Below, in pieces: positions 8,592-55,700 of a DNA stretch of 64,000 nucleotides (its first letter is position 1; the number at the start of each line of letters is the position of its first letter). The notes below the pieces were generated by a model. The model worked only from the letters and a program-made list of their open reading frames with translations, had not been told where the DNA came from and did no database searches. Both the position numbers and the translations under genes were made by a program. Where the stretch lies: positions 5,380-69,379 of the forward strand of contig CAYNSX010000004.1 in NCBI GenBank assembly GCA_964400165.1. The letters run 5' to 3'. The stretch comes from an uncultured bacterium (GTDB lineage: Bacteria > Armatimonadota > Hebobacteria > CAYNSX01).

Positions 8592-8596
8592 ACTTG

Positions 8597-8626
8597 CAGG
8601 AAACAAGGAAACAAGGAAACGAGGGT
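8597..8626. repeat. left inverted repeat (GGAAACAAGGAAACAAGGAAACGAGG) flanking the four-helix-bundle gene
   Basis: Its reverse complement, CCTCGTTTCCTCGTTTCCTCG, recurs at 9103-9131 as an imperfect inverted repeat. Confidence 0.5.
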
Positions 8627-8638
8627 CGGCTGACCTTC

Positions 8639-9094: not shown

Positions 9095-9102
9095 ACTCGA
9101 CC

Positions 9103-9131
9103 CAATCCTTGTTTCCTCGTTTCCTCGTTTC
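9103..9131. repeat. right inverted repeat (CCTTGTTTCCTCGTTTCCTCGTTTCCTCG)
   Basis: Partner of the repeat at 8597-8626. A shorter related motif, CCTCGTTTCCTTG, also occurs at about 3918-3930. Confidence 0.5.
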
Positions 9132-9149
9132 CTCGCCGTTGGATTTGCA

Positions 9150-10097
9150 ATGATGTCGCGCCCTCTTGGAAAGGCAACCAGAGACGGCTTCGGCGAAGCC
9201 CTCCGCGACCTCGGTGCGGTGGATGCCTCGTTCATCGTCCTCGACGGCGATGTAAACAATTCCACCCGCACCGAATACTTCGCCTCTAAGTACCCCGACC
9301 GGTTCTTCAATGTCGGCATCGCCGAGTCGAACCTGGTCGGCGTCGCGTCGGGCATCGCCTCGAACGGACGCACCACCTGGCTGGCCAGTTTCGCCGCCTT
9401 CCTGATGTGCAACGCCTTCGACCAATTGCGGATGTCGGTCGCGGTGCCCGGCCTGCCGGTCAAGTGCGTCGGCAGTCACGCCGGCATTTCCATCGGCGAA
9501 GACGGCCCCTCGCAGATGGCCATCGAAGATGTCGCGCTCGCCTGCGCGCTGCCCGGCTTCACCGTCGTCGTGCCCGCCGATGAATACACCGCCCGCGCCG
9601 CCGTCCCCGCGCTGCACCGGATGGACGGTCCGTGCTACCTGCGGGTCGGGCGCCCGAAAGTGCCCGTCGTCTACAGCAACGGCTCGGCGCTCTTTGAAAT
9701 CGGTCGCGCCAATCGCTTGCGCGAGGGCGGCGATGTGACGATTGTCGCCAACGGGTTGCTAGTCGCCCCGGCGCTCGACGCCGCCGACACCCTCGCCGGC
9801 GAGGGTGTCGAAGCCCGTGTGCTCGACATGCACACCGTCCGCCCGCTCGACGCTGAAGCGCTCCTGGCGGCGGCGAACGAGACCCGCGGCCTTGTCGTCG
9901 CCGAAGAGCACCTCATCGAGGGCGGGCTCGGCAGCCGCATCGCCGTCCTGCTCGCGCAACAGCGACCCTGCCCGATGCGGTTCGTCGGCCTGACCCGTTA
10001 CGCGGAATCGGGCAAGTCGGAAGCGCTGCTCGAGAAATACCACCTGACCGCGTCCGACATCGCCGCCGCCGCCCGCGACCTGCTGCGCGCGCGCTAG
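9150..10097 (+). CDS. tkt: transketolase, C-terminal (pyrimidine-binding plus C-terminal domain) subunit
   Basis: MMSRPLGKATRDGFGEALRDLGAVDASFIVLDGDVNNSTRTEYFASKYPDRFFNVGIAESNLVGVASGIA..GSHAGISIGEDGPSQMAIEDVALACALPGFTVVVPAD.. The start is the ATGATG 108 nt inside the track ORF. Confidence 0.85.
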   Translation: MMSRPLGKATRDGFGEALRDLGAVDASFIVLDGDVNNSTRTEYFASKYPDRFFNVGIAESNLVGVASGIASNGRTTWLASFAAFLMCNAFDQLRMSVAVPGLPVKCVGSHAGISIGEDGPSQMAIEDVALACALPGFTVVVPADEYTARAAVPALHRMDGPCYLRVGRPKVPVVYSNGSALFEIGRANRLREGGDVTIVANGLLVAPALDAADTLAGEGVEARVLDMHTVRPLDAEALLAAANETRGLVVAEEHLIEGGLGSRIAVLLAQQRPCPMRFVGLTRYAESGKSEALLEKYHLTASDIAAAARDLLRAR

Positions 10098-14486: not shown

Positions 14487-14497
14487 CAACCAAAGGG

Positions 14498-14570
14498 ACC
14501 AGGGAGGCGGGGAGGCGGGGAGGCAGTGGAGCATTGACTGCGTTCCCGCCTCCCTGCCTCCCTGCTTACC
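14498..14570. repeat. family-A palindromic repeat element between convergent genes
   Basis: GACCAGGGAGGCGGGGAGGCGGGGAGGCAG ... CGTTCCCGCCTCCCTGCCTCCCTGCTTACC. Confidence 0.5.
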
Positions 14571-14576
14571 TAGTCT

Positions 14577-16244: not shown

Positions 16245-16312
16245 GACCAGGAAGGCGGGAACGCAGGGAGGCAGTGACTGCCTTCCTGCCTTCCCGCCTC
16301 CCCGGTTCCTAG
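16245..16312. repeat. family-A palindromic repeat element abutting the stop codon of the peroxiredoxin gene
   Basis: GACCAGGAAGGCGGGAACGCAGGGAGGCAGTG-ACTGCCTTCCTGCCTTCCCGCCTCCCCGGTTCCTAG is a near-perfect palindrome. The TAG stop of the upstream gene lies at its edge. Confidence 0.5.
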
Positions 16313-20307: not shown

Positions 20308-21264
20308 TTGTCGTCTGGTTTAGTGAAGGGTACAACCTCCAAGATGCCCCGACCGAAAGAACCCGCCCTGCTCATCGGCACCGACGACGGCCTGCACCAA
20401 CTGCTGCCGGAGCCGCGCGTGGTGCTGCCCGAAGAGAAAGTGACCGCCATCGCCACCAGCGGCGAAGCCGTCTGGTGCATCACCGATGAGCGCACTGTCC
20501 GCCGCCAGCGCCACGGCACCGCCTTCAAGCCCATCTTCGAACTCACCGACCGCCGCCTCACCTGCCTGGGGCTGACCAGCCACGGCGTCTTCATCGGCAC
20601 CAGCGGCGCGCACCTGCTCCGCATCAAGAACAAGAAACTGGGGATGCTGCACTCCTTCGACCGCGTCACCGGGCGCAGCGAGTGGTTCACGCCTGACGGC
20701 GACGAGGCCGACATCCGCTCCATCGCCCAGTCCGAGAGCGGCGCCGTCTTCGTCAATGTCCATGTCGGCGGCATCCCGCGCACGCTCAACGGCGGCGACA
20801 CCTGGAAGCCCACCATCGACATCGAGCAGGATGTCCATCAGGTCATCGCCCACCCGAAGAAGGAAGGGCTGCTCCTCGCCGCCGCCGCGGTCGGGCTGTG
20901 CGTCAGTGACGACGACGGCGGCACCTGGACGGTGCGCAATGACGGCTTGCACGGCGACTACTGCCGGGCGGTGGCGCTCTGCCGCGACACCGTCCTGGTC
21001 ACGGCCTCGACCGGCCCGCGCAGCCGCCGCGGCGCCGTCTACCACACCTCGCTCAACGCCGCCGACACGCTGGAGAAGTGCGAGCGCGGCCTGCCCGAGT
21101 GGTTCCCCGGCAACATCGACACCGGCTGCCTTGCCGCCCACGGTGACCGTGCCGCCTTCGGCACCAAAGAGGGCGAAGTCTATCAGTCGCTTGACGCCGG
21201 CGAGTCCTGGACGCGCATCGCCGCCGCCCTGCCCCGCGTCCGCGCCGTCTCGTTTAGCGGGTAG
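20308..21264 (+). CDS. BNR/Asp-box repeat beta-propeller protein (sialidase-like / Ycf48-like fold)
   Basis: Asp-box repeats GGDTWK, SDDDGGTWT and SLDAGESWT. The start may instead be the ATG at 20344. Confidence 0.5.
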   Translation: MSSGLVKGTTSKMPRPKEPALLIGTDDGLHQLLPEPRVVLPEEKVTAIATSGEAVWCITDERTVRRQRHGTAFKPIFELTDRRLTCLGLTSHGVFIGTSGAHLLRIKNKKLGMLHSFDRVTGRSEWFTPDGDEADIRSIAQSESGAVFVNVHVGGIPRTLNGGDTWKPTIDIEQDVHQVIAHPKKEGLLLAAAAVGLCVSDDDGGTWTVRNDGLHGDYCRAVALCRDTVLVTASTGPRSRRGAVYHTSLNAADTLEKCERGLPEWFPGNIDTGCLAAHGDRAAFGTKEGEVYQSLDAGESWTRIAAALPRVRAVSFSG

Positions 21265-21406
21265 GACGCTGGGATGAGATGCCTGCGCAACCCTCCGCGG
21301 CGTCGGTTCGTCAGGTTTGCCATTGCCTCAGTGGCTGAAAGTGAGGCCTTGGGCATGCGATTCGCTCGATTCTTATCAGTAATTCTACTGAGTTGGGGTC
21401 TGTTCA

Positions 21407-21436
21407 CTTGACAGCGTTGCGGGGCGCGGGGATGAT
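21407..21436 (+). promoter_or_regulatory. sigma70-like promoter TTGACA -N17- GATGAT at the edge of the low-GC island
   Basis: A consensus -35 hexamer with a 17-nt spacer, followed by the RBS GGGAGCGAGG and the ATG of the Cys-rich ORF. Confidence 0.4.
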
Positions 21437-21463
21437 TCGCAGCGCTTGAAGGGAGCGAGGTCA

Positions 21464-21844
21464 ATGAGACTGAGAGCGGGGTCAGCAGTTCAGGCACTTT
21501 TGATTCTGGTCTTGCTGTCGGGAAGCGCGGGACCGCTGTTCGCAGTCTGTACGGTCGACCACGGACCATGCGTCAATGATGGCACATGCGAGGTCGGGAC
21601 TCTCGAATGCCAATCATATAATGAATTGACTGGGACCAATAAAGGGGTCATCTGTATTATGTCATGGCCCTTGGAACAAATCACCCGCCACGCGGGATCC
21701 TCACCCGATTTATATTTCATGACGCGTTATTGTGTCGAACTGGGAAAATGGCCTTGGCAATGGCCTGGCTGCGCTTGCCTCGGAACTCCAGACCAAACTG
21801 AACACCAGAGTCCATATGTTAGCTGCCAGACAACATGGCCATGA
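21464..21844 (+). CDS. small secreted cysteine-rich protein (10 Cys in about 100 mature residues), no recognisable family
   Basis: Signal peptide MRLRAGSAVQALLILVLLSGSAGPLFA, then CTVDHGPCVNDGTCEVGTLECQ...CIMSW...YCVELGKWPWQWPGCACLG...CQTTWP. GC is markedly lower than in the flanks. Confidence 0.4.
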   Translation: MRLRAGSAVQALLILVLLSGSAGPLFAVCTVDHGPCVNDGTCEVGTLECQSYNELTGTNKGVICIMSWPLEQITRHAGSSPDLYFMTRYCVELGKWPWQWPGCACLGTPDQTEHQSPYVSCQTTWP

Positions 21845-21905
21845 TGGAGGAATGGCTGGTCTGCGAAGTCGGGATGACCGTCTTTGCGAATGAGGAGGAG
21901 GATCT

Positions 21906-22976
21906 GTGAACACCACACATCCGACTGCGTTTCGCGCCTTCACATTAGTCGGCTTACTCGTAGTTGGCATTCTGGGCTTCGTTCTCTGGTTGAGGTCGCC
22001 GGAACCGCAAAGGACATCAGTCGCGACTGCATCGCCGGTAGCTTCAGCGCTGACGATTGGGGCTGTCGGGGCGGATGCGAAAGCCGTAGAGCTCCTCAAT
22101 AAACTGCAGGAGCGACTCGTCTCTTTGGGGACCGTCTCGGCGATCTGGAGTGAGACTTGGGAGCAGCATCCCATTTCAGGACACAGCGCCCTTTTGGCAT
22201 TGTTGACCCGCTCTCCAAAGATACCAGTTTACGTGACGACACGCGAGTCTCGCTCTGTCTGGTTTGCCACCGACGGCACCAAGTGGCGGCTGGATTGTTC
22301 TGAAGCGGCAGAACCCGTTTATGCGGAAGGCAGCACCGGCGAACGATCTAAGGGGTCGGACGACTATTCTGTCGCGTTTGACGGACTGCTAACGACCGCT
22401 CTTTCACAGGGTGGACGGGCAATGTATATCGCTGACACATCGACTGCCCGTACCGCCGTGCCGCACAATGGCTGGGAACACACCTACCGCGCGATCCTTT
22501 TTGGGGTGCCCTATTACAACCTCGGACAAGGCAGCACTTTCGCTTATGCGGGCCGAGAGTTTTTTTCGAAGTGGTGGTGCCACCGCCTGCATGGGGAGGG
22601 CACGGTCGAAGCGCCTGCGGGTGCTAGCGGCGATTGGAGTTACGAGGTGGACCTCTGGATTACCGATGACCCGATAGGCGTGCCTGTGGGTTACGAATTC
22701 CGCGGACATCAGGGCAACGCCGGGACTAGTAAGTGGCACTGGCAGATTGACCGCTTGGAGCAGCCGGCCGCCGGTGTCTTTCTCGGCGCAGATGGGTGGA
22801 AGGCATTTTGGCCGCCGTCCTGGAAGCTGACCGAACCGGAAGCGCGGACGACCTGGACCCTGCAGCAGGCCAGTGTCGATAACTCCCCTGCAGCGGAGAC
22901 ATTCCATCTGAGTCCTCCGGTGAAATGTCTCGTCCACGATCTCGTCGCAGGGGAAACTCGGCAAACTGGCCCTTAG
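21906..22976 (+). CDS. hypothetical membrane-anchored protein (N-terminal TM helix, ~330-aa extracytoplasmic domain)
   Basis: GTG start; N-terminal AFRAFTLVGLLVVGILGFVLWL. No motif recognised. Lies inside the same low-GC island. Confidence 0.4.
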   Translation: MNTTHPTAFRAFTLVGLLVVGILGFVLWLRSPEPQRTSVATASPVASALTIGAVGADAKAVELLNKLQERLVSLGTVSAIWSETWEQHPISGHSALLALLTRSPKIPVYVTTRESRSVWFATDGTKWRLDCSEAAEPVYAEGSTGERSKGSDDYSVAFDGLLTTALSQGGRAMYIADTSTARTAVPHNGWEHTYRAILFGVPYYNLGQGSTFAYAGREFFSKWWCHRLHGEGTVEAPAGASGDWSYEVDLWITDDPIGVPVGYEFRGHQGNAGTSKWHWQIDRLEQPAAGVFLGADGWKAFWPPSWKLTEPEARTTWTLQQASVDNSPAAETFHLSPPVKCLVHDLVAGETRQTGP

Positions 22977-23103
22977 CCACAAGTCCGAGCGAATGATACG
23001 AGAAGGTCGCAACTTTTAGCGCCGCGCCGCCGCTTCCGCCTGCGCGTCCCCCTCACTCCCGCTTCCTCCTTCGCCCTATGGGCTACGAAGGACAAGTCGC
23101 GTA

Positions 23104-23235
23104 CCCCTCGCCAATGTCAGGGAGAGGGGATTACAAGCACCGTGGGGCGCTGGCTGTGCCTCTCCTCTTCAGGGAGAGGGTGTCCACCGAAGCCTGATGT
23201 TTGGGCGAAGGAGGGCGGGAGAGGGACTTTACACC
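23104..23235. repeat. family-B hairpin units abutting the mrp stop codon
   Basis: CCTCGCCaatgtcaGGGAGAGGGGA, CCTCTCCtcttcaGGGAGAGGG and GGGAGAGGGACTTTACACC. The last unit matches GGGAGAGGGACTTcgcg at about 17951. Confidence 0.4.
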
Positions 23236-26823: not shown

Positions 26824-26865
26824 ACGGGTGTCGGGTGTCGGGTGTCGGGTGTGGGGTGTCGGGAA
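26824..26865. repeat. (GGGTGTC)x5 heptamer tandem repeat followed by CTAACTA-type repeats
   Basis: ACGGGTGTCGGGTGTCGGGTGTCGGGTGTGGGGTGTCGGG contains six GGG runs with 4-nt spacers, so it has G-quadruplex potential. It lies in the intergenic region between convergent genes. Confidence 0.6.
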
Positions 26866-26938
26866 ACGAAGAGTGCGGGTGACGGGCCGGACAGACCGCA
26901 GTTCCTACTAACTACTAACAACTAACGCTTTCTCTGCC

Positions 26939-29068
26939 TTACCAGCGATAGTTCGCTGTCAGCGAGTAGCGCGTTTTCGGCTGGCTGAAGAGGACATCGC
27001 TGCCTTCGGTGGTGCGCACGACGCCCGACAGGTCGAGGTACCAGTCCTTGGCGTCGATCTGGCTGGTCAGCCCGAAGCGGAGCAGGTAGTCGAAGCCGTC
27101 GCGGCGGTCGCCCGTCCCCATCAAGCCGAACTCGGCGCCGAGGTAGCCGCGGGCGTGTTTGCCGAACGGCCCGTCGACGCGCAGTTCGCCGGTCAGGATG
27201 TTGCGCTGCGACGGCAGTTCGATGCGCTCCGAGAAGCCGGTCGTCAGGTCATACCGCCCGAGCGGGAGCGTCAGGCGGATGGTGTGCGCTTCGTAGGGCT
27301 GGATGCGGCGGTTGTCGTCGAGCGGGTTGATGACATGCTCGACGGACAGCGTGCTGCGCTTGCCGAGCGCCCACTCGATGCGCTGGCGTTCGCCGGCGCC
27401 CTGTTGCAGGCGGCGCTCCTTGTCGAGCGGGTTGTCGAACTGCTCGAGGGTGAGCCGCATCTGCTTCGTCGCCTGCCAGGTGAGCAGCGTGTAGGCGCCG
27501 TCACCGAGTTGCGGGCGCTCCTTCTTGTCGAGCGGGTTTTGGAATTGTGCGTACTTCACTTGCAGCCCCTTGGCGGGCTTCCACTCGGCGAGCACTTCCT
27601 GCACGCCGATCGTGTCAAGCGCTTGCGCGCCCGCCGCGGTCGTCTGGGTCAGGCCGTCGCCGGTGCGCTGTTGAATGCGGGTCGTGAGGCTGAATCCGGG
27701 GATCGGCTGCATCGTCATCGAGAGGCCGACGATTTGCTGCTCGACGCCGTCCTTCTCGCCCGCCATCCAAGTGGCGGTCAGCGTGCCGAGTTTGCCCGCC
27801 TTCCAGCCGAGATCGAGTTGTGTGCGGCTGCGGTTGTCATTGCCGGCGAGCACGAGCGAGGTGCCGGTCAGCGACAGTGCTTTGCTCACGGGCAGCGTCA
27901 GGTTGATTGCGGTCGTGCTTTGGCCGGCGTCTTCGCCCTGGCGGATGCCGTCGCGCACCGCCTGGATTTGAATCTTGCCAAGGTTCGTCTGCAACTGCAT
28001 ATGGTCGCGCACCTGGTCGCGCGTCTGCCCGTCGGGCGTCGTCACCTGCGTCGTCTCTTGCAGCGCTTGCACGATGACGCCGGCAATCTGGTAATCGAGT
28101 TGCATCAGGTCGGTCACGGTGTCGGTGCTGCGGTCGTTCTGGGTGTCGGTGAGACTGGTGCGGCGCATCGTCATCTTGGGCAGGCCGGCGAGCCCGAGGC
28201 CGAAGTCGTAGGTCATCGTGCGCTTCGACTGGCCGGCGCTCGGCTTCGACCAATCGGTGAACGCCGCCTTCAGCGACAGCGGCCCGACCAGGTTGGGCGC
28301 CATCTCGAAGCCGAGGCGGCTCTCGCCGGGCTTGATGTCGAAGCCCGACTGCTCGGCGCCGGCGAACCCGAGGCCGAGCGACACATAGGTCGCCTTCATC
28401 GAGGCGAATCCGAGACTGCCGCTGGCGTTGAGTTTCATCGCGCTGGCGTCGGTGTGCTGCTGCCCCGACGACTGCATCGCCAAGCGCTGCAGGTCGCTTT
28501 GGAACGGCGCCCGCGGGTCGGTCGCCTGGCTGAACATCACCGCGGCGTCGAACCCGAACGCGCCGGTCGTGTGGGCGAGTTTCAATCCGGTTTGCAAGAA
28601 ACTGGCGTTGGGGTTGTTCGGGTCGGTGGTCATGCGCAGCAGCGCCGACAGATCACCGGCGAAGAATGTCCCGATGGCCGCTTCGCTGGCGACATTCGAC
28701 GCGCGGATGTTCGGCTGCGAGCGCAGCGGCAAGCGGAAGTACTCCACCGTCACTTGCGTCCCCGTGGGCAGCGGCTCCGTGAAAGTTACCGCGCCCTCGC
28801 CGGGGTTGATCTGATACTGCTCGCGCGCCATCCGCTGATTGCCCAGCCGCACCACGAACCCGACCGGCGAGATGTCCTTGAAGCGCAGGTAGTAGGGACC
28901 GGGCACGCCGCGGCCCGCGACCAGGTCGCGGGTCATCAAACTGGTGGCGTCACTGGCGGTCTGGCCGGCGGGCAGACCGGGCGCCACAAACGGCGACGGG
29001 TCCGCGACTGCCGCCGAGGCAAGCGCGACCGCCAGGAGCGCTGCGCCGAGATACCGAATTCCCCGCAT
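26939..29068 (-). CDS. large secreted/outer-membrane beta-barrel-like protein with internal NPLD-K/RERR repeats
   Basis: Signal peptide MRGIRYLGAALLAVALASAAVA; repeats FQNPLDKKERPQ / FDNPLDKERRLQ / INPLDDNRRIQ; alternating beta pattern; C-terminal ..TANYRW. Confidence 0.45.
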   Translation of the reverse strand: MRGIRYLGAALLAVALASAAVADPSPFVAPGLPAGQTASDATSLMTRDLVAGRGVPGPYYLRFKDISPVGFVVRLGNQRMAREQYQINPGEGAVTFTEPLPTGTQVTVEYFRLPLRSQPNIRASNVASEAAIGTFFAGDLSALLRMTTDPNNPNASFLQTGLKLAHTTGAFGFDAAVMFSQATDPRAPFQSDLQRLAMQSSGQQHTDASAMKLNASGSLGFASMKATYVSLGLGFAGAEQSGFDIKPGESRLGFEMAPNLVGPLSLKAAFTDWSKPSAGQSKRTMTYDFGLGLAGLPKMTMRRTSLTDTQNDRSTDTVTDLMQLDYQIAGVIVQALQETTQVTTPDGQTRDQVRDHMQLQTNLGKIQIQAVRDGIRQGEDAGQSTTAINLTLPVSKALSLTGTSLVLAGNDNRSRTQLDLGWKAGKLGTLTATWMAGEKDGVEQQIVGLSMTMQPIPGFSLTTRIQQRTGDGLTQTTAAGAQALDTIGVQEVLAEWKPAKGLQVKYAQFQNPLDKKERPQLGDGAYTLLTWQATKQMRLTLEQFDNPLDKERRLQQGAGERQRIEWALGKRSTLSVEHVINPLDDNRRIQPYEAHTIRLTLPLGRYDLTTGFSERIELPSQRNILTGELRVDGPFGKHARGYLGAEFGLMGTGDRRDGFDYLLRFGLTSQIDAKDWYLDLSGVVRTTEGSDVLFSQPKTRYSLTANYRW

Positions 29069-29352
29069 TCTCCTGCTTTCGCGGGCCATCCTACGCTGCC
29101 CGCCAGGGAGGGTCAATCAGCCCGCCCGCCCTCGATGTTCCACAGCCCGACAGGCCTTGGACGGCGGCGGGAGGCGTAAAGTTCGGCGACACGGAGGAGC
29201 GCATCGTCAGCAAAGCCAGCGCGGAATTACCGCATCCGTAAGAACCCAATGGTACCGTTTGCCGCAATCCCCGTCACCGCAAATTGGGTTCGTTTCGCAA
29301 TTTTGGTTTTCCCTGGCATGCCTGGGGATGAACAGAGGGCAGGGAGAAACGG

Positions 29353-30411
29353 TTAACCGGGCGCGCGGGCCGGGCGGGCCTCCGCAATCTGCCGGCCATC
29401 CGTGCGCTTCAGCGCGACGGGCTGGCCGGTCGCTTCGGCGAGCAACTGCAGCGGCACGGTGATGCCGTAGTCATAGTGCCGCGCCGGCGAGGGGAGCTTC
29501 ACCTGCCGCCCAGCGACGCTCGCCGTTCGCGTCCCGAACGCCACCGTCACCGCGCGCCCGCCGACGGTGAACTGCACTTCCTTCGCGCTCGCCTTCACGA
29601 CCTTGCCGCCGAGCAGCGCCAGCGCCTGGTCGAGCGCGACTTCGCTCTGCCCTGCGTTGACGCGATGCGCAATCGGCCGCTGTTTTGTTCCCGACACCAG
29701 ATTGCCCGGATCGATGCGCTTGCCCCACAACAAATACCCCTCGATGCGCATATCGAGCGTGTAAATCATCTGCTCTACGAGCGACCGCTCTTCCGGGCGA
29801 AGCGGTACCGTCACGGCGTCGAAGTCCCATCGCTTTCCGCTCAAAGTCCAAACACTCACGAAGATCGGACCTCGGGTGAAATAGACGCGGTAGTAGAAAT
29901 CCTCTCGGTCATTCACTTCACCAACCGACCAGTCGCCCAGGTGTCCTGCAGGGCCTGGCGAGGGCAAGGTGCGAATGTCGAACGAAACACTCGCGACAAA
30001 GAGGCCAGCCGTCTTAGATGCTTCTAACCCCTTCGGCTCTGTCGTCCATTCCATTCCGAAACCAATCTTGCGAGTGCCCAGCGGCGCGGTGGGATCAGAA
30101 TCTTCTCTGAAGAACGACTGCCCGGCGGCCGCTATGATCGGCAGTCCCACATCGTCAGTGTGCATCCTTCTCCAGTCCTCGTATTCTGCAAATGACGGAC
30201 GCGGCGGCGGGATGTGATGCCACCGGGGCAAACCGGATTCCAGTTTCCAGCCCACTGGACCTTCCGAGTCCGCGAAACGAATAGCGTCAAACCATACAGT
30301 CGGTACGGCGCGCACTTCTTGCGACCAGCTCGGCGCCAGGCACACTGGCAAGAAAAGAGTAACCGCGGTAAGCGCCATCCAACGGCGGGCGAACCAGCGA
30401 GTGCTGTTCAT
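29353..30411 (-). CDS. secreted hypothetical protein with C-terminal copper-amine-oxidase-N-terminal-like (stalk) domain
   Basis: Signal peptide. The C-terminal ..KEVQFTVGGRAVTVAFGTRTASVAGRQVKLPSPARHYDYGITVPLQLLAEATG.. resembles the Cu_amine_oxidN1 domain. GC is lower than in the flanks. Confidence 0.4.
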   Translation of the reverse strand: MNSTRWFARRWMALTAVTLFLPVCLAPSWSQEVRAVPTVWFDAIRFADSEGPVGWKLESGLPRWHHIPPPRPSFAEYEDWRRMHTDDVGLPIIAAAGQSFFREDSDPTAPLGTRKIGFGMEWTTEPKGLEASKTAGLFVASVSFDIRTLPSPGPAGHLGDWSVGEVNDREDFYYRVYFTRGPIFVSVWTLSGKRWDFDAVTVPLRPEERSLVEQMIYTLDMRIEGYLLWGKRIDPGNLVSGTKQRPIAHRVNAGQSEVALDQALALLGGKVVKASAKEVQFTVGGRAVTVAFGTRTASVAGRQVKLPSPARHYDYGITVPLQLLAEATGQPVALKRTDGRQIAEARPARAPG

Positions 30412-30413
30412 CT

Positions 30414-31718
30414 TCAGTCCACCACCTTTGGGACATAGCCCCGGAGCACCTCGAGATCGCTCGCAGGATAGCCCTGCACCAGCGCTGCTCGATACAGATT
30501 CCAGGCGACCTTCAATACATTAGAACCAGGAGGACAGTTCACCCTCGAACAGGCATCCCACGCGTATTCTGCCGTGCTTCCTCCGGGGGATGCCATGATG
30601 GCATGATAGTTCCAACTCCAGGTCTGACAGCCATACCTGAGCCCAGTCACATCGATGGGCCATGTACAGAACTGCTTGAAGGGTTGCGACGGGTCACAGT
30701 CAGGTGAAACCGCCGTTGGAACGATCGTTTTCGAATCTCTCGAGGTGACGCCGACTGCCCGACACAAGAGCACTAACAGGTCGTTAACATCATTGCACTG
30801 TCCGTTTACGCGGACGTTCATGTGCGCGCTCTCCGCGACATACAGTTGTGCGTTGAACTCTGGCGGATCTGCCCAATAGTTCGAGTAGAAGTATGCATCG
30901 CCGTCGGCTCGCTGTTGCGGGAAGGGAGGCAAGGGATAATTGAATAGAAACATTTCCACCCATAAGGTCAAACCAGCCGCCACCGAGTCGTTTGTGTTAG
31001 ACATTATCGCGTGCCGACAGGCGTAGTCGAGGAGCGTTTGCCACGGCAGCGCACCCCAGGCCTCGCCGCTCTCAATCCATTGCGGCGCCTCAAGCAAGCG
31101 ATAGATCCGCACGGGGGCTATACCGACTGCCACATCATTGTTCCCAAACTCCCAGTGACTCTCCGTGTCAGTCTTCGTCATGACCATATTCAATTCATAC
31201 CCGATGTCATCCGGCAGCGGTCCCACCTCGAACTCAATGAGATGAATCGTTGGATTCGCGCCCCCGAACTTCAACAGCCATGACGCTTCTTCGGGATCCT
31301 CGCCGCTCCCAACATACACTGGTATGACGCGGTCGAATTCATCGCTGGCCTCTATGGTGAGAATGGTTTTCGTGATGATGGTGCACGAATACAGCACCAT
31401 CGTCACATGCAGCGTGCTTCCCATCAGAACTGCTGTCGGATCCCGGTGCGGATTCGGTCCGCCCCCGACGCTGCATCCATACGGCGCTCCGTCCCACATC
31501 CACCCCGCCGGGTCGGTGGCATGCGGTATCGCAACTTCGTTCAGCCAGATCGCGTATTCTGGCGCGCCGCTGACCTTCAGACTTCGGACGAACAGTTCAC
31601 CATCTTCGCCCTGTTGCTGCGCGTCCACAGGCGCGGACTGCAGCGAAAGCAGCCCACCGAGAATCAGGAGAGCCAGGAGGCCTGGCCTGGCCTTGCCTTG
31701 CCTTGCCTTGCCGCTCAC
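30414..31718 (-). CDS. secreted transglutaminase-like (papain-fold Cys/His/Asp) domain protein
   Basis: GTG start preceded by GGAGGG; signal peptide VSGKARQGKARPGLLALLILGGLLSLQSAPVDA. Core ..GQCNDVNDLLVLLCRAVGVTSRD....WNYHAIM....AWDAC.. resembles the transglutaminase-like C/H/D triad. Lies in the low-GC region. Confidence 0.4.
   Translation of the reverse strand: MSGKARQGKARPGLLALLILGGLLSLQSAPVDAQQQGEDGELFVRSLKVSGAPEYAIWLNEVAIPHATDPAGWMWDGAPYGCSVGGGPNPHRDPTAVLMGSTLHVTMVLYSCTIITKTILTIEASDEFDRVIPVYVGSGEDPEEASWLLKFGGANPTIHLIEFEVGPLPDDIGYELNMVMTKTDTESHWEFGNNDVAVGIAPVRIYRLLEAPQWIESGEAWGALPWQTLLDYACRHAIMSNTNDSVAAGLTLWVEMFLFNYPLPPFPQQRADGDAYFYSNYWADPPEFNAQLYVAESAHMNVRVNGQCNDVNDLLVLLCRAVGVTSRDSKTIVPTAVSPDCDPSQPFKQFCTWPIDVTGLRYGCQTWSWNYHAIMASPGGSTAEYAWDACSRVNCPPGSNVLKVAWNLYRAALVQGYPASDLEVLRGYVPKVVD
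31691..31710. repeat. (CCTTG)4 = (GGCAA)4 pentanucleotide tract inside the first codons of the transglutaminase-like gene
   Basis: On the coding strand GTG AGC GGCAAGGCAAGGCAAGGCAAGG CC encodes the n-region SGKARQGKAR of the signal peptide. Gain or loss of one unit shifts the frame. Confidence 0.6.
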
Positions 31719-31854
31719 CCTTCTTCCCTCCGAATTGATTCTACCCCCGCGATGCAAGAGTTGTGCACTGCTGACAACCGCCTGCTTGCCTGCCACGCCT
31801 TCCGCCGATGCAGTCCTTTCGCCCTGGCGATAAGATGCCATCACACAGGACTCT

Positions 31855-33291
31855 ATGACCACGGACGCCCTCATCGCGGAACTGCGCCGCCTGCTCGGAC
31901 CCGAGGCCGTCTTCTCGCGGCCGGAGGAACTGGCCGTCTACGAATGCGACGCCTACACCGTCCCGAAGATGCGGCCCGAGGCGGTCGTCCTGCCGCGCAA
32001 CACCGACGAAGTGGCGGCGGTGGTGCGGCTGTGCGCCCGGGCGCGGGTGCCTTTCGTCCCGCGCGGCGCGGGCACGGGGTTGAGCGGCGGCACGCTCCCC
32101 ACCCGCGGCGGCGTGATGATCGGCTTGAGCCGGATGAACCGCATCGTCGCGGTGGACATCGCCAACCGCCGGGCGGTGGTCGAGGCGGGATTGGTGAACC
32201 TGCGCCTGACCGAGGCGGTCAGCAGCCGCGGGCTGTGCTTCGCGCCCGACCCGAGCAGCCAGATGGTCTCGACCATCGGCGGCAATGTCGCCGAGAACGC
32301 CGGCGGCCCGCACACACTGAAGTACGGCGTCACCACCAATCATGTGCTCGGCGTGGAACTGGTGCTGCCCGACGGCGAGGTGGTCTGGTGCGGCGCCGCG
32401 GTCGAAGACCTGCCCGGCCTCGACCTGACGGGCGTCGTCGTCGGCTCCGAGGGCACCTTCGGCATCGTGACGAAGGCGATCGTGCGGCTGGTGCCGCTGC
32501 CGCAGGGCTGGCGGACACTGCTGGCCATTTTCCCGAGCATCGACACGGCGAGCCGGGCGGTGTCGGGCATTCTCGGCGCCGGCGTGACGCCGGCGGCGCT
32601 GGAGATGATCGACCAGACGATGCTGCGCGCCATCGAGGAGGCGTTCCACTACGGCTTCCCGACCGACGCCGGCGCGGTGCTGCTGGTGGAACTCGACGGC
32701 ATCGAAGCGGGCCTCGACGCGCAGGCGGACCGCGTCGAGAAGGTGTGCGCGGAGTCGGGGGCGGTCGAAGTGCGCCGGGCGCACGACGCCGACGAGCGCG
32801 CCCATTTCTGGAAGGCGCGCAAGATGGCGGTGGGCACGGTCGGGCGCCTGGCGCCGAGCGTGGCGACGCAAGACGGCGTCATTCCGCGCACCAAACTCCC
32901 CGAGGCGCTGAAGCGCATCGACGAGATCGCGGCGCGGCACCGGGTGCGCATTTGCCATGTCTTCCACGCCGGCGACGGCAACCTGCATCCCGTCACGCTC
33001 TTTGACGAGCGCGACGCCGACGAGGCGCAGCGGGTCCTCGCCGCCGGCATGGACATCCTGCGGGTGTGCATCGACCTGGGCGGCAGTCTCACCGGCGAAC
33101 ACGGCATCGGCACCGAGAAACTCGACGCGATGGCGCTGATGTTCACCGACGACGACCTGGCGGTCTTCCGCCGGGTGCGCGAGGCGTTCAATCCCGACGG
33201 GCTGTGCAATCCCGGCAAAGTGGTGCCGACGGGCGCCGAATGCCGCGAATTGCGAGTCAAGCAGGCCGCGGCGCCGGGCGCATGGGTTTGA
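31855..33291 (+). CDS. glcD: glycolate oxidase subunit GlcD (FAD-linked oxidase)
   Basis: ..VVLPRNTDEVAAVVRLCARARVPFVPRGAGTGLSGG.. (FAD PCMH) and a C-terminal FAD-oxidase domain. Confidence 0.85.
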   Translation: MTTDALIAELRRLLGPEAVFSRPEELAVYECDAYTVPKMRPEAVVLPRNTDEVAAVVRLCARARVPFVPRGAGTGLSGGTLPTRGGVMIGLSRMNRIVAVDIANRRAVVEAGLVNLRLTEAVSSRGLCFAPDPSSQMVSTIGGNVAENAGGPHTLKYGVTTNHVLGVELVLPDGEVVWCGAAVEDLPGLDLTGVVVGSEGTFGIVTKAIVRLVPLPQGWRTLLAIFPSIDTASRAVSGILGAGVTPAALEMIDQTMLRAIEEAFHYGFPTDAGAVLLVELDGIEAGLDAQADRVEKVCAESGAVEVRRAHDADERAHFWKARKMAVGTVGRLAPSVATQDGVIPRTKLPEALKRIDEIAARHRVRICHVFHAGDGNLHPVTLFDERDADEAQRVLAAGMDILRVCIDLGGSLTGEHGIGTEKLDAMALMFTDDDLAVFRRVREAFNPDGLCNPGKVVPTGAECRELRVKQAAAPGAWV

Positions 33292-34454: not shown

Positions 34455-35671
34455 GTGAGCCCGCCCGCGCCGAACTCGACCAATTGAGCCAGGCCTGCAT
34501 CCACTGCGGGCTGTGCTTGGAGGCGTGCCCGACCTACCGCGTCCTGGGCTCGGAGATGGACTCGCCGCGCGGGCGCATTTATCTGATGCGCGCCGTCCTG
34601 CATGACGAATTGCAGCCGACCGCGACGGTGCAGAAACACCTCGACCGTTGCGTCGGCTGCCGGGCGTGCGAACCGGCGTGTCCGTCGGGGATGCAATACG
34701 GGCGATTGCTCGAGGGGTTCCGCGCCGCGGTGTCGGAACCGGCGCGACCGCGCGGCTGGCGGCGGACAGTGGTGCGCGCGCTGATTCGGACGGTGCTGCC
34801 GCACCCCGCCCGCTTGCGCCGGGCGCTGGCGTGGGGCGCGTTCGCTCGCGCGATCGCGCGCCTGTTCAAGCGCCGCGGGCCGCTGCCGCTGGCGCTTGAT
34901 TCGCTGCCGCAGCCGCAGGCGCGACTGCCGCTGCCGGAGACGACATACGCGGGAGGCGCGCGCGGGCGCGTCGGGTTCTTGCGCGGCTGCGCGATGTCCG
35001 TGCTGTTCCCGGCCGTGAATGCCGATACCGTGCGCGTCCTCGCCGCGGCGGGCTACGCGGTCGTGACGCCGCCGCAGCAGGGCTGCTGCGGCGCGCTGGC
35101 CGCGCATGACGGCGATCACGCGGGCGCGGCGCAGTTCGCGCGGGCGCTGATCGCGGCGTTCCCGACCGACTTGGAATGCATCGTGACGAACTCCGCCGGC
35201 TGCGGCGCCGCTATGAAACAATACGGCCACCTGCTCGGCGATGAGGACGGCGCCCGGTTCGCCGCCACGGTGCGCGATGTCAGCGAAGTGCTGGTCGATA
35301 CTCCGTTGCCGCTCGTCGAGCGGAAACAGCGCGTCGCCTACTACGACCCCTGCCACCTGAAGAACGGCCAGGGCATCACAAAGCAACCGCGGGCGCTGCT
35401 GCGAGCGGCGCCGGGCGTGGAATTGGTCGAACTCGGCGCGCTCGGCTGCTGCGGCGGCGCCGGCGCCTACTTCCTGACGCAGCCCGGACTCTCGCAATCG
35501 CTGCTCGATGCGCTGATGGACTGCGTCGCCGAGGCGAAGCCCGATGTTGTCGTCACCGGCAACCCGTCGTGCCTGCTGCAGTTGCAGAAAGGGGTGGCCC
35601 AGCGCGGCCTGACCATCCCCGTCCAGCACCTCGCCGAGTTCCTGGCTGAATCGCTTTCGACAGACCCTTGA
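34451..35671 (+). CDS. glcF: glycolate oxidase iron-sulfur subunit GlcF
   Basis: MSEPARAELDQLSQACIHCGLCLEACPTYRV..LDRCVGCRACEPACPSG.. (2x 4Fe-4S) plus two CCG domains. ATGA overlap with the glcE stop. Confidence 0.8.
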   Translation: MSEPARAELDQLSQACIHCGLCLEACPTYRVLGSEMDSPRGRIYLMRAVLHDELQPTATVQKHLDRCVGCRACEPACPSGMQYGRLLEGFRAAVSEPARPRGWRRTVVRALIRTVLPHPARLRRALAWGAFARAIARLFKRRGPLPLALDSLPQPQARLPLPETTYAGGARGRVGFLRGCAMSVLFPAVNADTVRVLAAAGYAVVTPPQQGCCGALAAHDGDHAGAAQFARALIAAFPTDLECIVTNSAGCGAAMKQYGHLLGDEDGARFAATVRDVSEVLVDTPLPLVERKQRVAYYDPCHLKNGQGITKQPRALLRAAPGVELVELGALGCCGGAGAYFLTQPGLSQSLLDALMDCVAEAKPDVVVTGNPSCLLQLQKGVAQRGLTIPVQHLAEFLAESLSTDP

Positions 35672-35759
35672 CAGGACATCCACAGGATTGGCATACTAAT
35701 AAAACAAAAGTTTGAATATCGAGACGCATGGAAAGTCTGTACAGTCCGAAGGGAAAGCC

Positions 35760-36701
35760 ATGAGTCGAGAAAAGAACGGCAGAGTTAACAAAGGGCGACG
35801 CGAACGCAGCAGATACCTCTCCCCAATCTATCTGGATGGCATCCTAACAGTCAGAGAGCAGCTTGCGCTCTATGGCTACAAGGTCATCCAACGGAAGACA
35901 CGGGGACGAAAATTCATCGCATTTGGATGGTACGGTGGCAAGTTTTCTCATCTCGATTGGCTCCTGCCGCTGCTGCCCTCGTGTCACCACTACTGCGAAC
36001 CTTTTGGCGGCTCTGCTGCGGTTCTGTTGAATCGGCCCCCTTGTCCCGTGGAAACATACAACGATATTGACGGAGAGGTAGTGAATTTCTTCCGAATCCT
36101 TCGCAGCCGACCAGAGCGACTACTCAAGGAGATTGCGCTCACACCCTTTTCCCGGGAAGAGTTCTTCTTTGCCTGCACAACCAATGGTCAGCGCATAACT
36201 GACCTTGAGCGTGCAAGGAGATTCTTCGTTCGCGCACGACAGGTAAGAACGGGACTTGCGCAGAGTGCAAGCCTTGGTCGTTGGGCAAACTGCAAGAACA
36301 CCACCCGTTCGGGAATGTCTGGCGTCGTGTCACGATGGCTTGGGAGCGTTGACACTCTGCCATCGGTCGCAGAGAGATTGCTGCGAGTGCAAATCGAGAA
36401 CCGCCCAGCTGCCGATCTCGTCAAGCTGTACGATGACAAGGGGACTCTTTTCTACTGTGACCCACCCTATCCCCACGAGGCACGCGGAGATGACAAGGCG
36501 TATGGCGCAGAGATGACAGACGAAGAGCATGCAGAGCTGTCAGAACTCTTGGTGCGCGCAAGAGGCAAGGTGGCTGTCTCGGGCTACCGTTGCAAGCTTA
36601 TGGACAAGCTATACAAGGGATTCCGTCGTATCGATGCTCCAACAAAGCTCTGCCATTCAACCAAGGGACCACGCACCGAATCCCTCTGGATCAACTACTG
36701 A
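35760..36701 (+). CDS. Dam-family (alpha-class, D12) N6-adenine DNA methyltransferase
   Basis: Motif X FGWYGGK, motif I EPFGGSAAVLL and motif IV YCDPPY occur in the Dam order. GC is about 50%, far below the flanks. Confidence 0.7.
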   Translation: MSREKNGRVNKGRRERSRYLSPIYLDGILTVREQLALYGYKVIQRKTRGRKFIAFGWYGGKFSHLDWLLPLLPSCHHYCEPFGGSAAVLLNRPPCPVETYNDIDGEVVNFFRILRSRPERLLKEIALTPFSREEFFFACTTNGQRITDLERARRFFVRARQVRTGLAQSASLGRWANCKNTTRSGMSGVVSRWLGSVDTLPSVAERLLRVQIENRPAADLVKLYDDKGTLFYCDPPYPHEARGDDKAYGAEMTDEEHAELSELLVRARGKVAVSGYRCKLMDKLYKGFRRIDAPTKLCHSTKGPRTESLWINY

Positions 36702-36719
36702 GTTACGACAAGTCCGCGA

Positions 36720-37805
36720 ATGCCTGATCTGAATCTCGAAGCCGCGCGTGAAGTACTTGAGCGCCTCTTCACCGAAGTGGAGGGCGAACTGCTTGAGGGC
36801 ACCGTTCCCTCAGTCGACCCGCGATTCAACGATGCGATCTCACATGTGTTCAGATCCTCCACTCAATCATACAGAGAGATCCTCCTTGGCTGCATCCTGG
36901 CCCGTCTCCAGGACAAGAGCATCGACATTCACCTCCCCTATGTTGGCCTAGGAGAGAATTCATACCACGGCAGAAAACTGGATGAAGACGTGGTGAATCC
37001 ATTCCTGCACGCTCACCAAATCCCAAGCACGCGGGGTGCCTTTCTAGCGGTCTTCCGCAGGTCGGTCAGTTTCGTCCCCGAGACTCGGGAGGGACTGAAA
37101 GATACAGCCGGATATGATTCCCTGCTCATCCTAATCGACTACCTTGCTCAAGAAGTGGACGATGGAGCGATAGAAAGTTTTCTAAAAGTGCTGTTGGCAA
37201 AGTTGGTCGAAGTTCGTGAGGGTGCACGTATTGAGCTAATCAATCTGCAACGACTGAGCGCGGATCAATATGGCGCATTGATTGACGGGCTCCTGGCAAG
37301 ACAGAGTGGGGGGAGATTTCCAGTCATGCTGGTCGCGGCTGCTTTCGAGGCGCTCCGCGAGAGATTCCACTTGCCCTGGGAGATACAGACACAAGGGATC
37401 AATGTAGCGGACCTTCCATCGAAGTTCGGTGGAGACATCGTAATCCTGGAAGGTGACAGGACAGTTTTGGCCGCAGAGGTCACCGAACGACGGATCGACA
37501 AAGAGCGAGTCGTGGCCACGTTTCAGGCCAAAATTGGCCCACAAGGGATTGATGACTACTTGTTCTTTGTCACTGCGGACGTGGATGAGTCAGTGATGCG
37601 CCAATCCAGGCAGTACTTCACCCAAGGTCATGAAGTGAGCTTTGTGCTCATAAAGGGTTGGATTCTCGCAATTTTGCTGACGATCGGCCCTGACGGTCGA
37701 AGGGCCTTCAACAATGCATTGTTGGAACGGTTGTCAGACTCAACGGTACCCTCTTCGCTGAAGGCCATTTGGAACGAACTGATGGTCGTGCTTACAGAAG
37801 TTTGA
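36720..37805 (+). CDS. hypothetical 361-aa protein immediately downstream of the methyltransferase; putative restriction endonuclease partner
   Basis: No recognised motif; the call rests only on adjacency and co-orientation with the Dam-like MTase and the shared low GC. A possible PD-(D/E)xK-like stretch ..GGDIVILEGDRTVLAAEVTERRIDKER.. is not convincing. Confidence 0.3.
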   Translation: MPDLNLEAAREVLERLFTEVEGELLEGTVPSVDPRFNDAISHVFRSSTQSYREILLGCILARLQDKSIDIHLPYVGLGENSYHGRKLDEDVVNPFLHAHQIPSTRGAFLAVFRRSVSFVPETREGLKDTAGYDSLLILIDYLAQEVDDGAIESFLKVLLAKLVEVREGARIELINLQRLSADQYGALIDGLLARQSGGRFPVMLVAAAFEALRERFHLPWEIQTQGINVADLPSKFGGDIVILEGDRTVLAAEVTERRIDKERVVATFQAKIGPQGIDDYLFFVTADVDESVMRQSRQYFTQGHEVSFVLIKGWILAILLTIGPDGRRAFNNALLERLSDSTVPSSLKAIWNELMVVLTEV

Positions 37806-37810
37806 CCTCT

Positions 37811-38572
37811 TCAGCTCCTTGACTTCAGCGCCTCTTTCAACAACTCCACCGTCGCGGCGACATCGGTCTCGATGTAGCGCTCGCCGCGGGCGCGGTCGCC
37901 GAGCGTCGGGTCGCCGACGACCCCGTTGCCGGTGACCTGCTTCCAGGTCTTGCTCTTGAAGTCTTCCCGCGCCTCGCGGTAGTCGCCGGTGAAGCCGGGC
38001 GCGGCCTTGTCCATCTGCACCAGGCCGCTGTGGAGCGCCAGCATGATCGAGGTCTCGACCTCGCCGGCGTGGGCGCCGGCGGCGCCGGTGCCGATGCCGT
38101 CCTTGGCGGCCACCTGATAGAAGCGGTCGAAAGCGGTATCGAGGTCAATCAGGTAGTGCACGCGCGCCGGCGCCACCGTCCGGCGCAAGTCGGCGAGCAT
38201 CGCTTCGAGCGGCGGGAAGTTGCCGCCGTGCGTCGGCAGCAGGACCAGGTCGGTGAGGCCATGCTGCGCCAGGGTGCGGCAATAATCGGTGACGACGGCC
38301 TGCAGCGTTTCGCGGCGCAGCGAGATGGTGCCGGGGAACTCCATGTGGTGGTCGCTGCAGCCGGCGGCGATGCACGGGGCGACGAACGCCTGGCCCAGCG
38401 CCCGCGCCACCCGCTCGCCGAGCGCCCGGCCGTAGGCGCTGTCGGTCATGGTCGGCAGGTGGGGGCCGTGCTGCTCGTTCGAGCCGACGGGGATCAGGCA
38501 GGTGGTCCAGCCGACGGCAATGCGGGCGGCGATTTCGGGCGAAGTCAGATGTTCCAGCGCGACGGTCTCCAC
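37811..38572 (-). CDS. creatininase / creatinine amidohydrolase family protein
   Basis: ..IPVGSNEQHGPHLP..D....HGGN.. metal-binding pattern of the creatininase fold. The start is taken at the GTG of VETVALEH (M/V45 of the track ORF). Confidence 0.6.
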   Translation of the reverse strand: METVALEHLTSPEIAARIAVGWTTCLIPVGSNEQHGPHLPTMTDSAYGRALGERVARALGQAFVAPCIAAGCSDHHMEFPGTISLRRETLQAVVTDYCRTLAQHGLTDLVLLPTHGGNFPPLEAMLADLRRTVAPARVHYLIDLDTAFDRFYQVAAKDGIGTGAAGAHAGEVETSIMLALHSGLVQMDKAAPGFTGDYREAREDFKSKTWKQVTGNGVVGDPTLGDRARGERYIETDVAATVELLKEALKSRS

Positions 38573-52705: not shown

Positions 52706-55700
52706 TCAGAGGGGCAGTTGCGCCGCCCGCGTAATGAAAACTGCCATTTGGGCGCGGGTAACGATGTTCGCCGGCTTATATGTGCCGTCCGGGAATCCGG
52801 CTGTAATGCCCTTGCTGACGATGTATTCGATGAACTTGTAGGACGGGTGCGCGCACGAGACATCCGAGAAGCGCTCGCTGCCGCACGCTGGGGGAGTGAA
52901 AGCAGCAAGGTCGAGGTCGGCCAGGTCGCGCACGCGCGCAAGGAACACTGCCATCGCGCCGCGGCTGACGAAGTTGCCCGGTTTGTAGGTGCCATCCGGA
53001 AAGCCCGCGGCAATCCCCTTGCTGACAATGTACTCGATGAATTTGTAGGACGGGTGAGTGCACGAGAGATCGGAGAAGGTCTCACTGGCGCACGCTGGCG
53101 GCGCGAAAGAAGCGAAGTCGCCAAGCGTCAAATTTGCTGCCCGCGCCATGAAGACCGCCATCGCGCTGCGACTGACCATGCTGTCGGGGTGAAAGGAGCC
53201 GTCAGGGAACCCAGAAGCGATGGCGGCACGCGATACGGCTTCAATGAATTGGAATGCCCAGTAGCCGCAGGGGACATCGGAGAAGGAGTCGGCAGTTTGC
53301 TTCACAGCGTAGGAGACCGTGTCTTCCGAGGTCAGGCCACCCCAATCGGTGACGCGCAGCCGCACCGTGGTGACGCCAAGCGGCAACTCTATGACCTTGC
53401 GCTCGCCTTGCTCGTCAACGGTACCATCGTTTCCGAAATCCCACTCGAAGAAGGCAATGTTGTCGTTCGTGTGGGGCAGCGAGTCGAAGTCGGACGACCG
53501 CGTCCCATCGAGGAGTATTGTGCCAGCGGTCGCCTGGCAGCCGACGACGGTCGTCACATCGGGGCCGGCATCCGCTATCGGCTGCCGGTTCCCGCCCACC
53601 GCGACGAAGACCTCGCGTTGCAGCGCAGAATCGCGACCGAATCCGTTCGACACAGTGATCAGGGCCTCGCCGGAGTCAACAGCGGTGACAAGGCCGTCCG
53701 AAGTCACGGTGGCCACGGTCGGATCGGAAGTGGCAAACGACGTGCCGGTCGTCGTATCTGTCAGGTCGCGCCATAGCTGATCATTGAAGAGGCCCGTCAC
53801 TTGGAGCGGTTGGCTCTCTCCCATGTTTGCAAAGCGGATCGCGTCGGGCTGCACGACCAGATCAGCAAGGATCGCGTTTGGCATAGCGGTGACTGTGACC
53901 GCGGGGGAAGTGACCAGCGAACCATCTGCCAGCTGCCCCGCGGCCGAGATGGTGATGGGGCCGGAAGCGTTCGCCGATACCTGGTATGAAACAGTCCACG
54001 GGCTGCTCCCGGCCGGGTCGAGGACGACCGTGTCGTCGACTCCGAGCACGACCAGGCTTTGAGGCGCGATCCCATTGTCAGCGACGACCGTTACACTCAC
54101 GCTGCTGCCGCTTTCGACTTGCGTCCCCCCCAATGGGGCCGTGATATGCAATTGCCCATGCGAGGAGGGCCGCAACCTCGACGTGCCGGACACTGCACGC
54201 GGGGCCGCGCTCAACCTGGATAGGGCTGATGGTGCTGGTGGGAATGCGAAGGTCGCGGTATAGCTCGGGGTGTTGAGCAGCGCAAGAACGCGATCCCGGT
54301 ACACCGGGCTCGTTGTGTTCGCGGGGTGATTGAAGTCGCAGCCCTGAAACACATCGTACGCTCCGGACGGAAGCCCTCCCCGCTGGCTGTATGCGGACAC
54401 GATCCCATCGCTCGATGCACCTGAGAACACCGTATCCCATACCCCACACGCCGTATCCACGCCGCCGGCAGCGCATAGTGACCAGGTCTTAATGGCAAAG
54501 GAAAAGAAAACCCTCGCGTCAATGGAAAGACAGAACAACGCTTCACAGCCAAATCCGGCGTGCCCAATGAGCGCGTGAGTGGGGATTCCAGTCGCGCCCA
54601 TGTCCAAAATAGCCCGATTGCCAGGGACAAGGTCGTTCACTGCGCCCTGGTCGATTGGCAATCCTGCCTGGGCCATCAGCCAAGTCAGATATTCGCCGCA
54701 TAGCAAATGATTATCACGCATGTCGACGAGAGCGAGGGCGAGTCCTGACCCGAAGTGAGGGGTGTCAAGCGTAATGAGCTTGTGAACATCGCCCTGCATG
54801 AGGTTATCTCGGCGCCGGTATTCGGGCTGGTTGAAATACACCCGCGTCAGGACGCCGCCCATACTGTGTCCCACAATATCGGCGCCCATGACAGCGACTC
54901 CCGGGCGCCGCAGCTTGAACAGCGCAATTGCTTGAGCCACCGCGGTTCTCGGGACCAGAGCATTGGCAGCGAAGGAGAGCGCACTGCCTCGAGTGGAGGG
55001 ATCGTTGTCGGAATCCCCGTCGTAGTCCGCGATCCACATCACGAATCGGGAATCTTGTATGAATGATGTAAAGAACGGTGCCTGACCTTGAGACCAAGTG
55101 TCCGCGTTGGACCAGACACCATGGAGCAGTACCACCGGAGGGCGGTGAATTTCGATGGATGTGTCCGGAAGCGTTTGTGCAGAGCCTCCCGCCGGATAGA
55201 AAGTCGCGTGCAACACGACACTGCGGGTGGCGCGAAATGCGTCGCCGGGCGCGCTCATGCGCACGAAGTCGGCCGGCGCCCGGTAATAGGCAAAGGCGAA
55301 TTTCCCCCGCGAGGTGTTCACCACCGGCACTGTCAGCGCCAGTCGTGGGTCGGAGCGATTGGCGAAGTACAGGCCGCCGCCCTCGTTAGTGTTCGCCTCA
55401 TTCTGGACTGCAAAAGCCACCGTCCCGTCGGCGGTAGCCGGCAAGCGCAAGAGCACTGTCGCTTGACCGTCCGCCGCGACGCCACGTCGCGGGCCGCCGC
55501 CGACGGCTAACACCTCGGCGGCAGTGACGGTATTGCCGGTGCTGCCAACGAACTCCGGCCAGGCGTCGAGCCGCTGGACGGGTCCGCGAACTGCGCGATT
55601 CGGACCGGTCGTGAATGCTACCGTGGCGTAGTTGGAATAGCCGACCGGGTAGTCGTAGTACAAGGCAGTGCCCGTCACGAACACGGTCGCCCCATCGGGG

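Follow-up and report, generated by a model that had tools for sequence, protein, structure and literature searches.

When a pentanucleotide is repeated in tandem immediately behind the start codon of a predicted secreted protein, does it act as a slipped-strand switch that turns the gene ON and OFF, or is it a short coding microsatellite that happens to lie there? This question is raised by a gene on the minus strand of the window, i.e., of the whole 64-kb stretch of DNA that was analysed here. An earlier note on this DNA had proposed that four GGCAA units behind the GTG start codon form a phase-variation switch for a secreted, transglutaminase-like protein that is encoded within a foreign-looking island. 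Below, we consider the tract itself, the protein that it helps to encode, the genomic surroundings of the gene and, finally, the consequences that a gain or loss of units would have.

The repeat tract and the start codon

Read on the minus strand, the gene opens with GTG (31718-31716) and AGC, which are followed by (GGCAA)4 (31712-31693), (GGCCA)2 (31692-31683) and GGCC (31682-31679), and then by the codons CTC CTG GCT CTC CTG ATT CTC. On the plus strand, positions 31679-31712 read GGCCTGGCCTGGCCTTGCCTTGCCTTGCCTTGCC. The following features can be distinguished in this region:

31693..31712, minus strand: perfect (GGCAA)4 core, codons 3-9 (direct reading, regex SSR scan, TRF)
31679..31692, minus strand: variant units (GGCCA)2 plus GGCC, period and register unchanged, reaching codon 13 (TRF, direct reading)
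31716..31718, minus strand: GTG start codon (434-aa product equal to NCBI call P0001; starts enumerated)
31727..31731, minus strand: Shine-Dalgarno-like GGAGG, 8 nt upstream of the GTG (direct reading)
31738..31767, minus strand: sigma-70-like promoter match, TGCACA, 18-nt spacer, TAGAAT (9/12), a consensus match only

The whole period-5 tract comprises 34 nt (31712-31679) and occupies codons 3-13; TRF reports it at 31680-31712, with a period of 5, 6.6 copies and 96% matches. The placement of four perfect units just after the GTG, in codons 3-9, as given in the earlier note, agrees with our reading, and the interval named there (31691-31710) covers these four units when they are read as CAAGG. 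The extent of the array was underestimated, since two further units, each differing from GGCAA by one A>C change, had been overlooked, and with these it continues to codon 13.

The GTG at 31716-31718 is a credible start, because GGAGG is found 8 nt ahead of it, because the 434-aa translation from this codon is identical to the NCBI-derived protein P0001, and because the encoded protein continues directly into the hydrophobic core of a signal peptide. Alternative in-frame starts before the tract are a TTG at -39, a GTG at -78 and an ATG at -123. As these other candidates are all upstream, the tract is within coding sequence whichever start serves; the nearest in-frame start downstream is a GTG at codon 31, past the hydrophobic core.

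The tract is non-random. It is the sole pentanucleotide repeat with at least three copies in the 64 kb (regex SSR scan), and of 200 sequences simulated from the window with a first-order Markov model, none had more than 14 consecutive period-5 self-matches, as compared to 18 in the tract. Analytically, at least four perfect pentamer copies are expected 1.9e-4 times per 64 kb, such that the repeat number exceeds composition-based chance. TRF and the regex scan found no frame-shifting SSR of similar length at another gene start in the 64 kb. We also asked whether the tract belongs to a site of insertion or recombination and rejected this, as its motif is matched nowhere else in the window and the surrounding cassette (see below) is devoid of terminal repeats.

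With respect to the origin of the array, two unit types are present, each in tandem duplicate. The fact that the GGCCA variant is itself tandemly duplicated implies that at least one unit duplication followed the point change, and we infer that the array grew by unit-wise duplication. Furthermore, the codons of the tract are rare in this genome: in twelve core genes, AGG accounts for 3% of Arg, GCA for 7% of Ala and CCA for 6% of Pro codons. Because these are codons that the genome avoids, their use suggests that repetition of the DNA, rather than optimisation of codons or protein, set the sequence of the tract.

Could the tract have arisen through an error of assembly or consensus calling, given that the contig is metagenome-assembled, or else be part of an RNA hairpin by which the ribosome-binding site is hidden? 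We regard both as highly improbable. Reads and assembly k-mers exceed the 34 nt of the tract by far, and the reading frame is uninterrupted and encodes a proper signal peptide, both of which speak against an artefact. As to a hairpin, the MFE fold does pair the region of the Shine-Dalgarno sequence and start codon with 16 nt after the tract and places the repeats at the apex. However, its stability does not differ significantly from that of shuffled sequences (z = -1.7; 11 of 200 shuffles fold equally well), the corresponding DNA hairpins have z values of about -0.8 to -1.0, and there is no match in Rfam.

The window harbors several other repeats. A 23S_rRNA_IVP (four-helix-bundle) gene (8525-9094, Pfam E = 1.5e-21; region 8525-9135) sits between the halves of a split transketolase (7734-8591 and 9042-10097) and is bracketed by inverted tandem octamer arrays, (AGGAAACA)3.4 at 8598-8624 and (GTTTCCTC)3.8 at 9106-9135; this region looks like a small inserted unit. 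Degenerate tandem-octamer elements are found in intergenic positions at 14497-14572, 16247-16311, 4412-4455 and 5903-5950, with arms GGGAGGCG/CAGGAAGG and the complementary CCTCCCTG/CTGCCTTC. Two of them are full palindromes (long intergenic hairpins) and two are C-rich half-elements, and they resemble REP-like or terminator-like repeats. Lastly, the gene for a 1855-aa SLH-domain protein (52706-58273, minus strand) contains in its 3′ part a 207-nt tandem repeat (52724-53176, 2.2 copies, 76% matches), which probably corresponds to repeated SLH domains.

The predicted product and its partner gene

The gene and its downstream neighbor have the following features:

30414..31718, minus strand: 434-aa orphan secreted protein with a weak Transglut_core match at residues 276-333 (translation, Pfam, homology searches)
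31620..31718, minus strand: predicted Sec signal peptide, 33 codons (translation and hydropathy)
29353..30411, minus strand: 352-aa gene with signal peptide and C-terminal Cu_amine_oxidN1 domain

The earlier proposal that the product is secreted is supported by the layout of n-, h- and c-region in the predicted protein, as judged by rule of thumb and hydropathy. A Sec (SPase I) signal peptide is expected to combine a positive n-region with a hydrophobic h-region of ~10-15 residues and to have small amino acids at positions -3 and -1. Here, the n-region (residues 1-13, VSGKARQGKARPG) contains K4, R6, K9 and R11, and every one of these positive charges is encoded by the tract (SGKARQGKARPG), which contributes the peptide GKARQGKARPG. 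Residues 14-26 (LLALLILGGLLSL) form the hydrophobic core of the h-region, and the c-region has V-D-A at residues 31-33, followed by Q34.

This arrangement invites the explanation that the repetition is kept for the sake of the protein, with the duplicated GKAR(Q/P) providing an n-region of +4 and the periodicity of the DNA being without consequence. In agreement with this, the n-region owes its four positive charges entirely to the tract, and 15 nt (three units) correspond to exactly one GKARQ peptide repeat. Nonetheless, we find this explanation quite improbable. The perfect periodicity is at 5 nt and not at 15 nt, and selection at the level of codons would fail to maintain it; rare codons occur all along the tract; and a version with a single unit would still have a +2 n-region, so that a tract of this length is unneeded.

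The designation of the protein as transglutaminase-like has fared less well, because the Pfam match is sub-threshold. Transglut_core (PF01841) scores 17.8 bits with the whole protein and 19.5 bits with its C-terminal half, compared to a gathering threshold of 23, and the HMM alignment covers the Cys segment only (profile positions 24-80). By eye, this segment, GQC308NDVNDLLVLLCRAVGV, resembles the Cys motif of the transglutaminase superfamily, and candidate catalytic residues are Cys308 in this segment, His372 in NYH372A and Asp388 in AWD388A. The protein had no match in PDB sequences or in NCBIfam, and a single-sequence AlphaFold2 model had a mean pLDDT of 35.5 and was unusable for the fold. 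The transglutaminase-like label is a weak one.

The ATG of the partner gene is found 2 nt past the TGA of the 434-aa gene. Because of this proximity, the 352-aa partner is probably translationally coupled to the 434-aa gene, and it could be affected by OFF frames, too. The gene calls for the partner differ: the JGI product is 352 aa long and has a signal peptide at its N-terminus, and the NCBI product (P0003) has 270 aa and starts from Met83. The longer form looks likelier to us; the shorter call would weaken the coupling. A single homologue of the 352-aa partner was found (39%; P0007 on L032), and its upstream neighbor is unrelated, so that this route did not lead to another copy of the tract.

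The cassette and the search for a second copy of the tract

The two genes together make up an accessory segment:

29249..31854, no strand assigned: two-gene cassette of ~2.6 kb, low GC, absent from the relative (L002/L003)

The relative is represented by the metagenome contigs L002 and L003, which have 80-91% nucleotide identity to the window over 16.6-45.4 kb. Where the window has 29187-31855, these contigs have 74 bp, and the 710-aa orthologue of the 725-aa ORF (26939-29116) there directly adjoins glcD. Among GTDB representatives, the GlcD of the window has its best matches at no more than 52-58% identity, and these belong to mixed phyla. The cassette genes have GC contents of 0.575 and 0.626 versus 0.64-0.71 in core genes, and their GC3 is lower as well. 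The notion of a foreign-looking island therefore stands, in the form of a low-GC cassette without counterpart in a close relative.

A second sighting of the cassette comes from another sample (JGI 3300010391), in which a contig of 2,398 bp (L001) spans window positions 28821-31218. Over 1,970 nt of the cassette there are 0 differences, as compared to 9 in the 428 nt of flank, eight of which are synonymous and fall in 296 nt of the 725-aa gene. If differences were evenly spread, the chance of finding 9/9 in the flank would be (428/2398)^9, or ~2e-7. An identical cassette beside a differing flank suggests that the cassette was recently shared by strains with different core genomes, be it through horizontal exchange or a gene-specific sweep; L001 could also be a chimeric assembly. 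The cassette has the properties by which a horizontally acquired islet is recognized, namely absence from the relative, atypical composition and a divergence that is discordant with that of its flanks. Around it, we detected neither an integrase nor terminal repeats nor a target duplication.

Two further inserts of ~2 kb in the window, 35646-37823 and 21249-23230, are likewise low in GC (0.55-0.59) and absent from the relative. The former carries a D12-class N6-adenine methyltransferase (35712-36701) and an unknown 361-aa ORF, which probably constitute a restriction-modification pair, and the latter carries a 356-aa ORF without Pfam match.

Relatives of the 434-aa protein were not found among about 15 billion sequences, which makes it an orphan. 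A word-indexed search of 5.8 billion clusters returned the protein itself only, and an exhaustive HMMER search over 1.84 billion representatives returned itself plus one lectin-like protein (P0006), which we dismissed as a relative because the match is a chance one. Scans of genome_contigs, metagenome_contigs, viral_contigs, plasmids and phages yielded nothing for the tract or the gene, and the exact 23-mer just 3′ of the tract had no match in metagenome_contigs. The only other sighting of the cassette, L001, ends at window position 31218, 461 bp short of the tract. No gene calls corresponding to an OFF phase or to alternative starts (codon 31, codon 74 or the upstream ATG) are on record, and neither are the exact GlcD and 716-aa neighbor proteins.

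Two other arrays in the window were compared with the relative. (CTACTAA)3 at 26905-26926 has the same, conserved copy number in the relative (L002). (CGGGTGT)5.6 at 26825-26863 starts 2 nt past the stop codon of a G5/DUF348/3D gene and fits a G-quadruplex-type motif, and its region is unaligned with L002. With one array conserved and the other unaligned, they were uninformative as gauges of slippage activity.

Consequences of unit gain and loss, and how the tract may be read

In-silico alleles with 0-9 GGCAA units were built and translated, with the following outcome:

1, 4 or 7 GGCAA units: full length, 429, 434 or 439 aa, with charged n-region (ON)
0, 3, 6 or 9 GGCAA units: stop after 33-48 codons (OFF)
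2, 5 or 8 GGCAA units: stop after 14-24 codons (OFF)

A period of 5 cannot be divided by 3, and so, as the earlier note had predicted, a change by one unit shifts the frame. Translation then ends early in either OFF frame, namely after 14-43 codons with 2, 3, 5 or 6 units. In silico, gain or loss of units switches between a full-length and a truncated product. Enumeration of start codons yielded no rescue start for the OFF frames, and no upstream start codon opens into the body of the gene. An OFF allele would thus amount to a true null with respect to the secreted protein.

By analogy, this architecture is that of translational SSR phase variation, and the opa pentamer is its nearest counterpart. 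In opa, the repeat encodes the hydrophobic core of the signal peptide. The tract described here encodes the charged n-region instead, and the two have no sequence relationship. What they share is a pentamer unit (CTCTT/CTTCT in opa) in the region coding for the signal peptide of a secreted or surface protein, with one repeat number in three being in frame, and thus a translational ON/OFF layout, which for opa goes along with documented variation and in the present case is read from the sequence.

The two systems also differ in length, since variable opa tracts have ~5-24 units (PMC5953494), whereas here there are 4 perfect and 2 variant units. Work on the Neisseria phasome used a cut-off of 5 units for pentanucleotides and scored opa alleles with 1-4 units as non-variable, and many genic pentamers with 3 units, e.g., GCCGC(3), AAGAA(3) and GGCGC(3), showed no variation (PMC5953494). 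These short pentamers resemble our tract in being short coding arrays that pass a permissive SSR filter, but they have 3 units, lie in conserved genes and are unchanged across isolates (PMC5953494), whereas the present tract is longer, is located at the extreme 5′ end and belongs to an accessory gene. In Haemophilus influenzae, on the other hand, a pentamer cut-off of 3 has been used (PMC2651432). There, hsdM (GACGA)4 was reported to switch at rates like those of long tetranucleotide tracts, with 1, 2 or 4 units observed among strains (PMC2651432, citing Zaleski 2005). As in our case, hsdM has a four-unit pentanucleotide tract inside the coding sequence; it differs in being a restriction-modification gene of a low-GC, host-adapted pathogen with many SSR loci, and in that unit-number variation has been seen there. 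With 4 perfect units (6.6-6.8 including variants), our tract is below the Neisseria cut-off of 5 and above the H. influenzae cut-off of 3, both of which were calibrated on other lineages.

A selected phase-variation switch is plausible under these circumstances; the structure of the tract permits it and the sequence agrees with it throughout, but it would be at the short end of the known switching range. Under this explanation, the tract is a contingency locus that has been selected for hypermutability, and slipped-strand mispairing would toggle the secreted protein and, via coupling or polarity, its partner. The anatomy is canonical for such a locus, as codons 3-13 of a secreted accessory gene hold an SSR whose unit length is indivisible by 3, with early stops in the OFF frames and no rescue start. 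The repeat number is far above that expected from composition, which a review names as the key criterion for phase variation (PMC11868660). There are precedents in opa CTTCT (PMC5953494) and in the four-unit hsdM pentamer (PMC2651432). Furthermore, the cassette is accessory and appears to have been recently exchanged between strains. These points notwithstanding, we consider a contingency locus somewhat unlikely. There are only 4 perfect units, and the array is broken by variants; a second copy of the tract was not found in the collections searched, so that variation was not observed; and the 64 kb contain no other candidate contingency SSR. Moreover, the host is an uncultivated high-GC bacterium that is known from metagenomes alone, and to our knowledge there are no established SSR phasomes in such bacteria.

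We therefore lean, with a probability of roughly 55%, towards the tract being a coding microsatellite that was born by slippage and that acts as a low-rate frameshift hotspot. Replication slippage would have created the microsatellite, which would then happen to provide an orphan secreted protein with the charged n-region of its signal peptide. A gain or loss of one unit would abolish the 434-aa protein and probably lower the expression of the coupled downstream gene. Such slippage is expected to be rare, because there are only four perfect units and variant units interrupt the array; this expectation of a low rate is taken from other species. The gene would be lost and regained from time to time, in contrast to a demonstrated contingency switch that is under selection and operates at high frequency. 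By comparison with Neisseria, the length of the tract, borderline with respect to the cut-off of 5 (PMC5953494), would fit a low-rate microsatellite. Its location at a classic position for phase variation and the reported switching of the four-unit hsdM tract (PMC2651432) would argue the other way.

The most far-reaching possibility is that the tract works as a contingency switch in this high-GC, uncultivated bacterium and gates a secreted two-gene cassette that circulates horizontally between strains and that consists of an orphan putative protein of cysteine-protease/transglutaminase fold and a partner with a Cu_amine_oxidN1 domain. This appears unlikely to us. If it were true, SSR phase variation would be found outside of host-adapted pathogens, its usual setting.

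Should the number of units be invariant, the tract would be an ordinary short coding microsatellite, and it would illustrate that a 5′ SSR in a secreted gene is not by itself proof of phase variation. Should it vary, a gene without relatives among about 15 billion proteins would be under slipped-strand ON/OFF control, and the products of the cassette would perhaps be costly to the cell or targeted, for instance by phage or predators.
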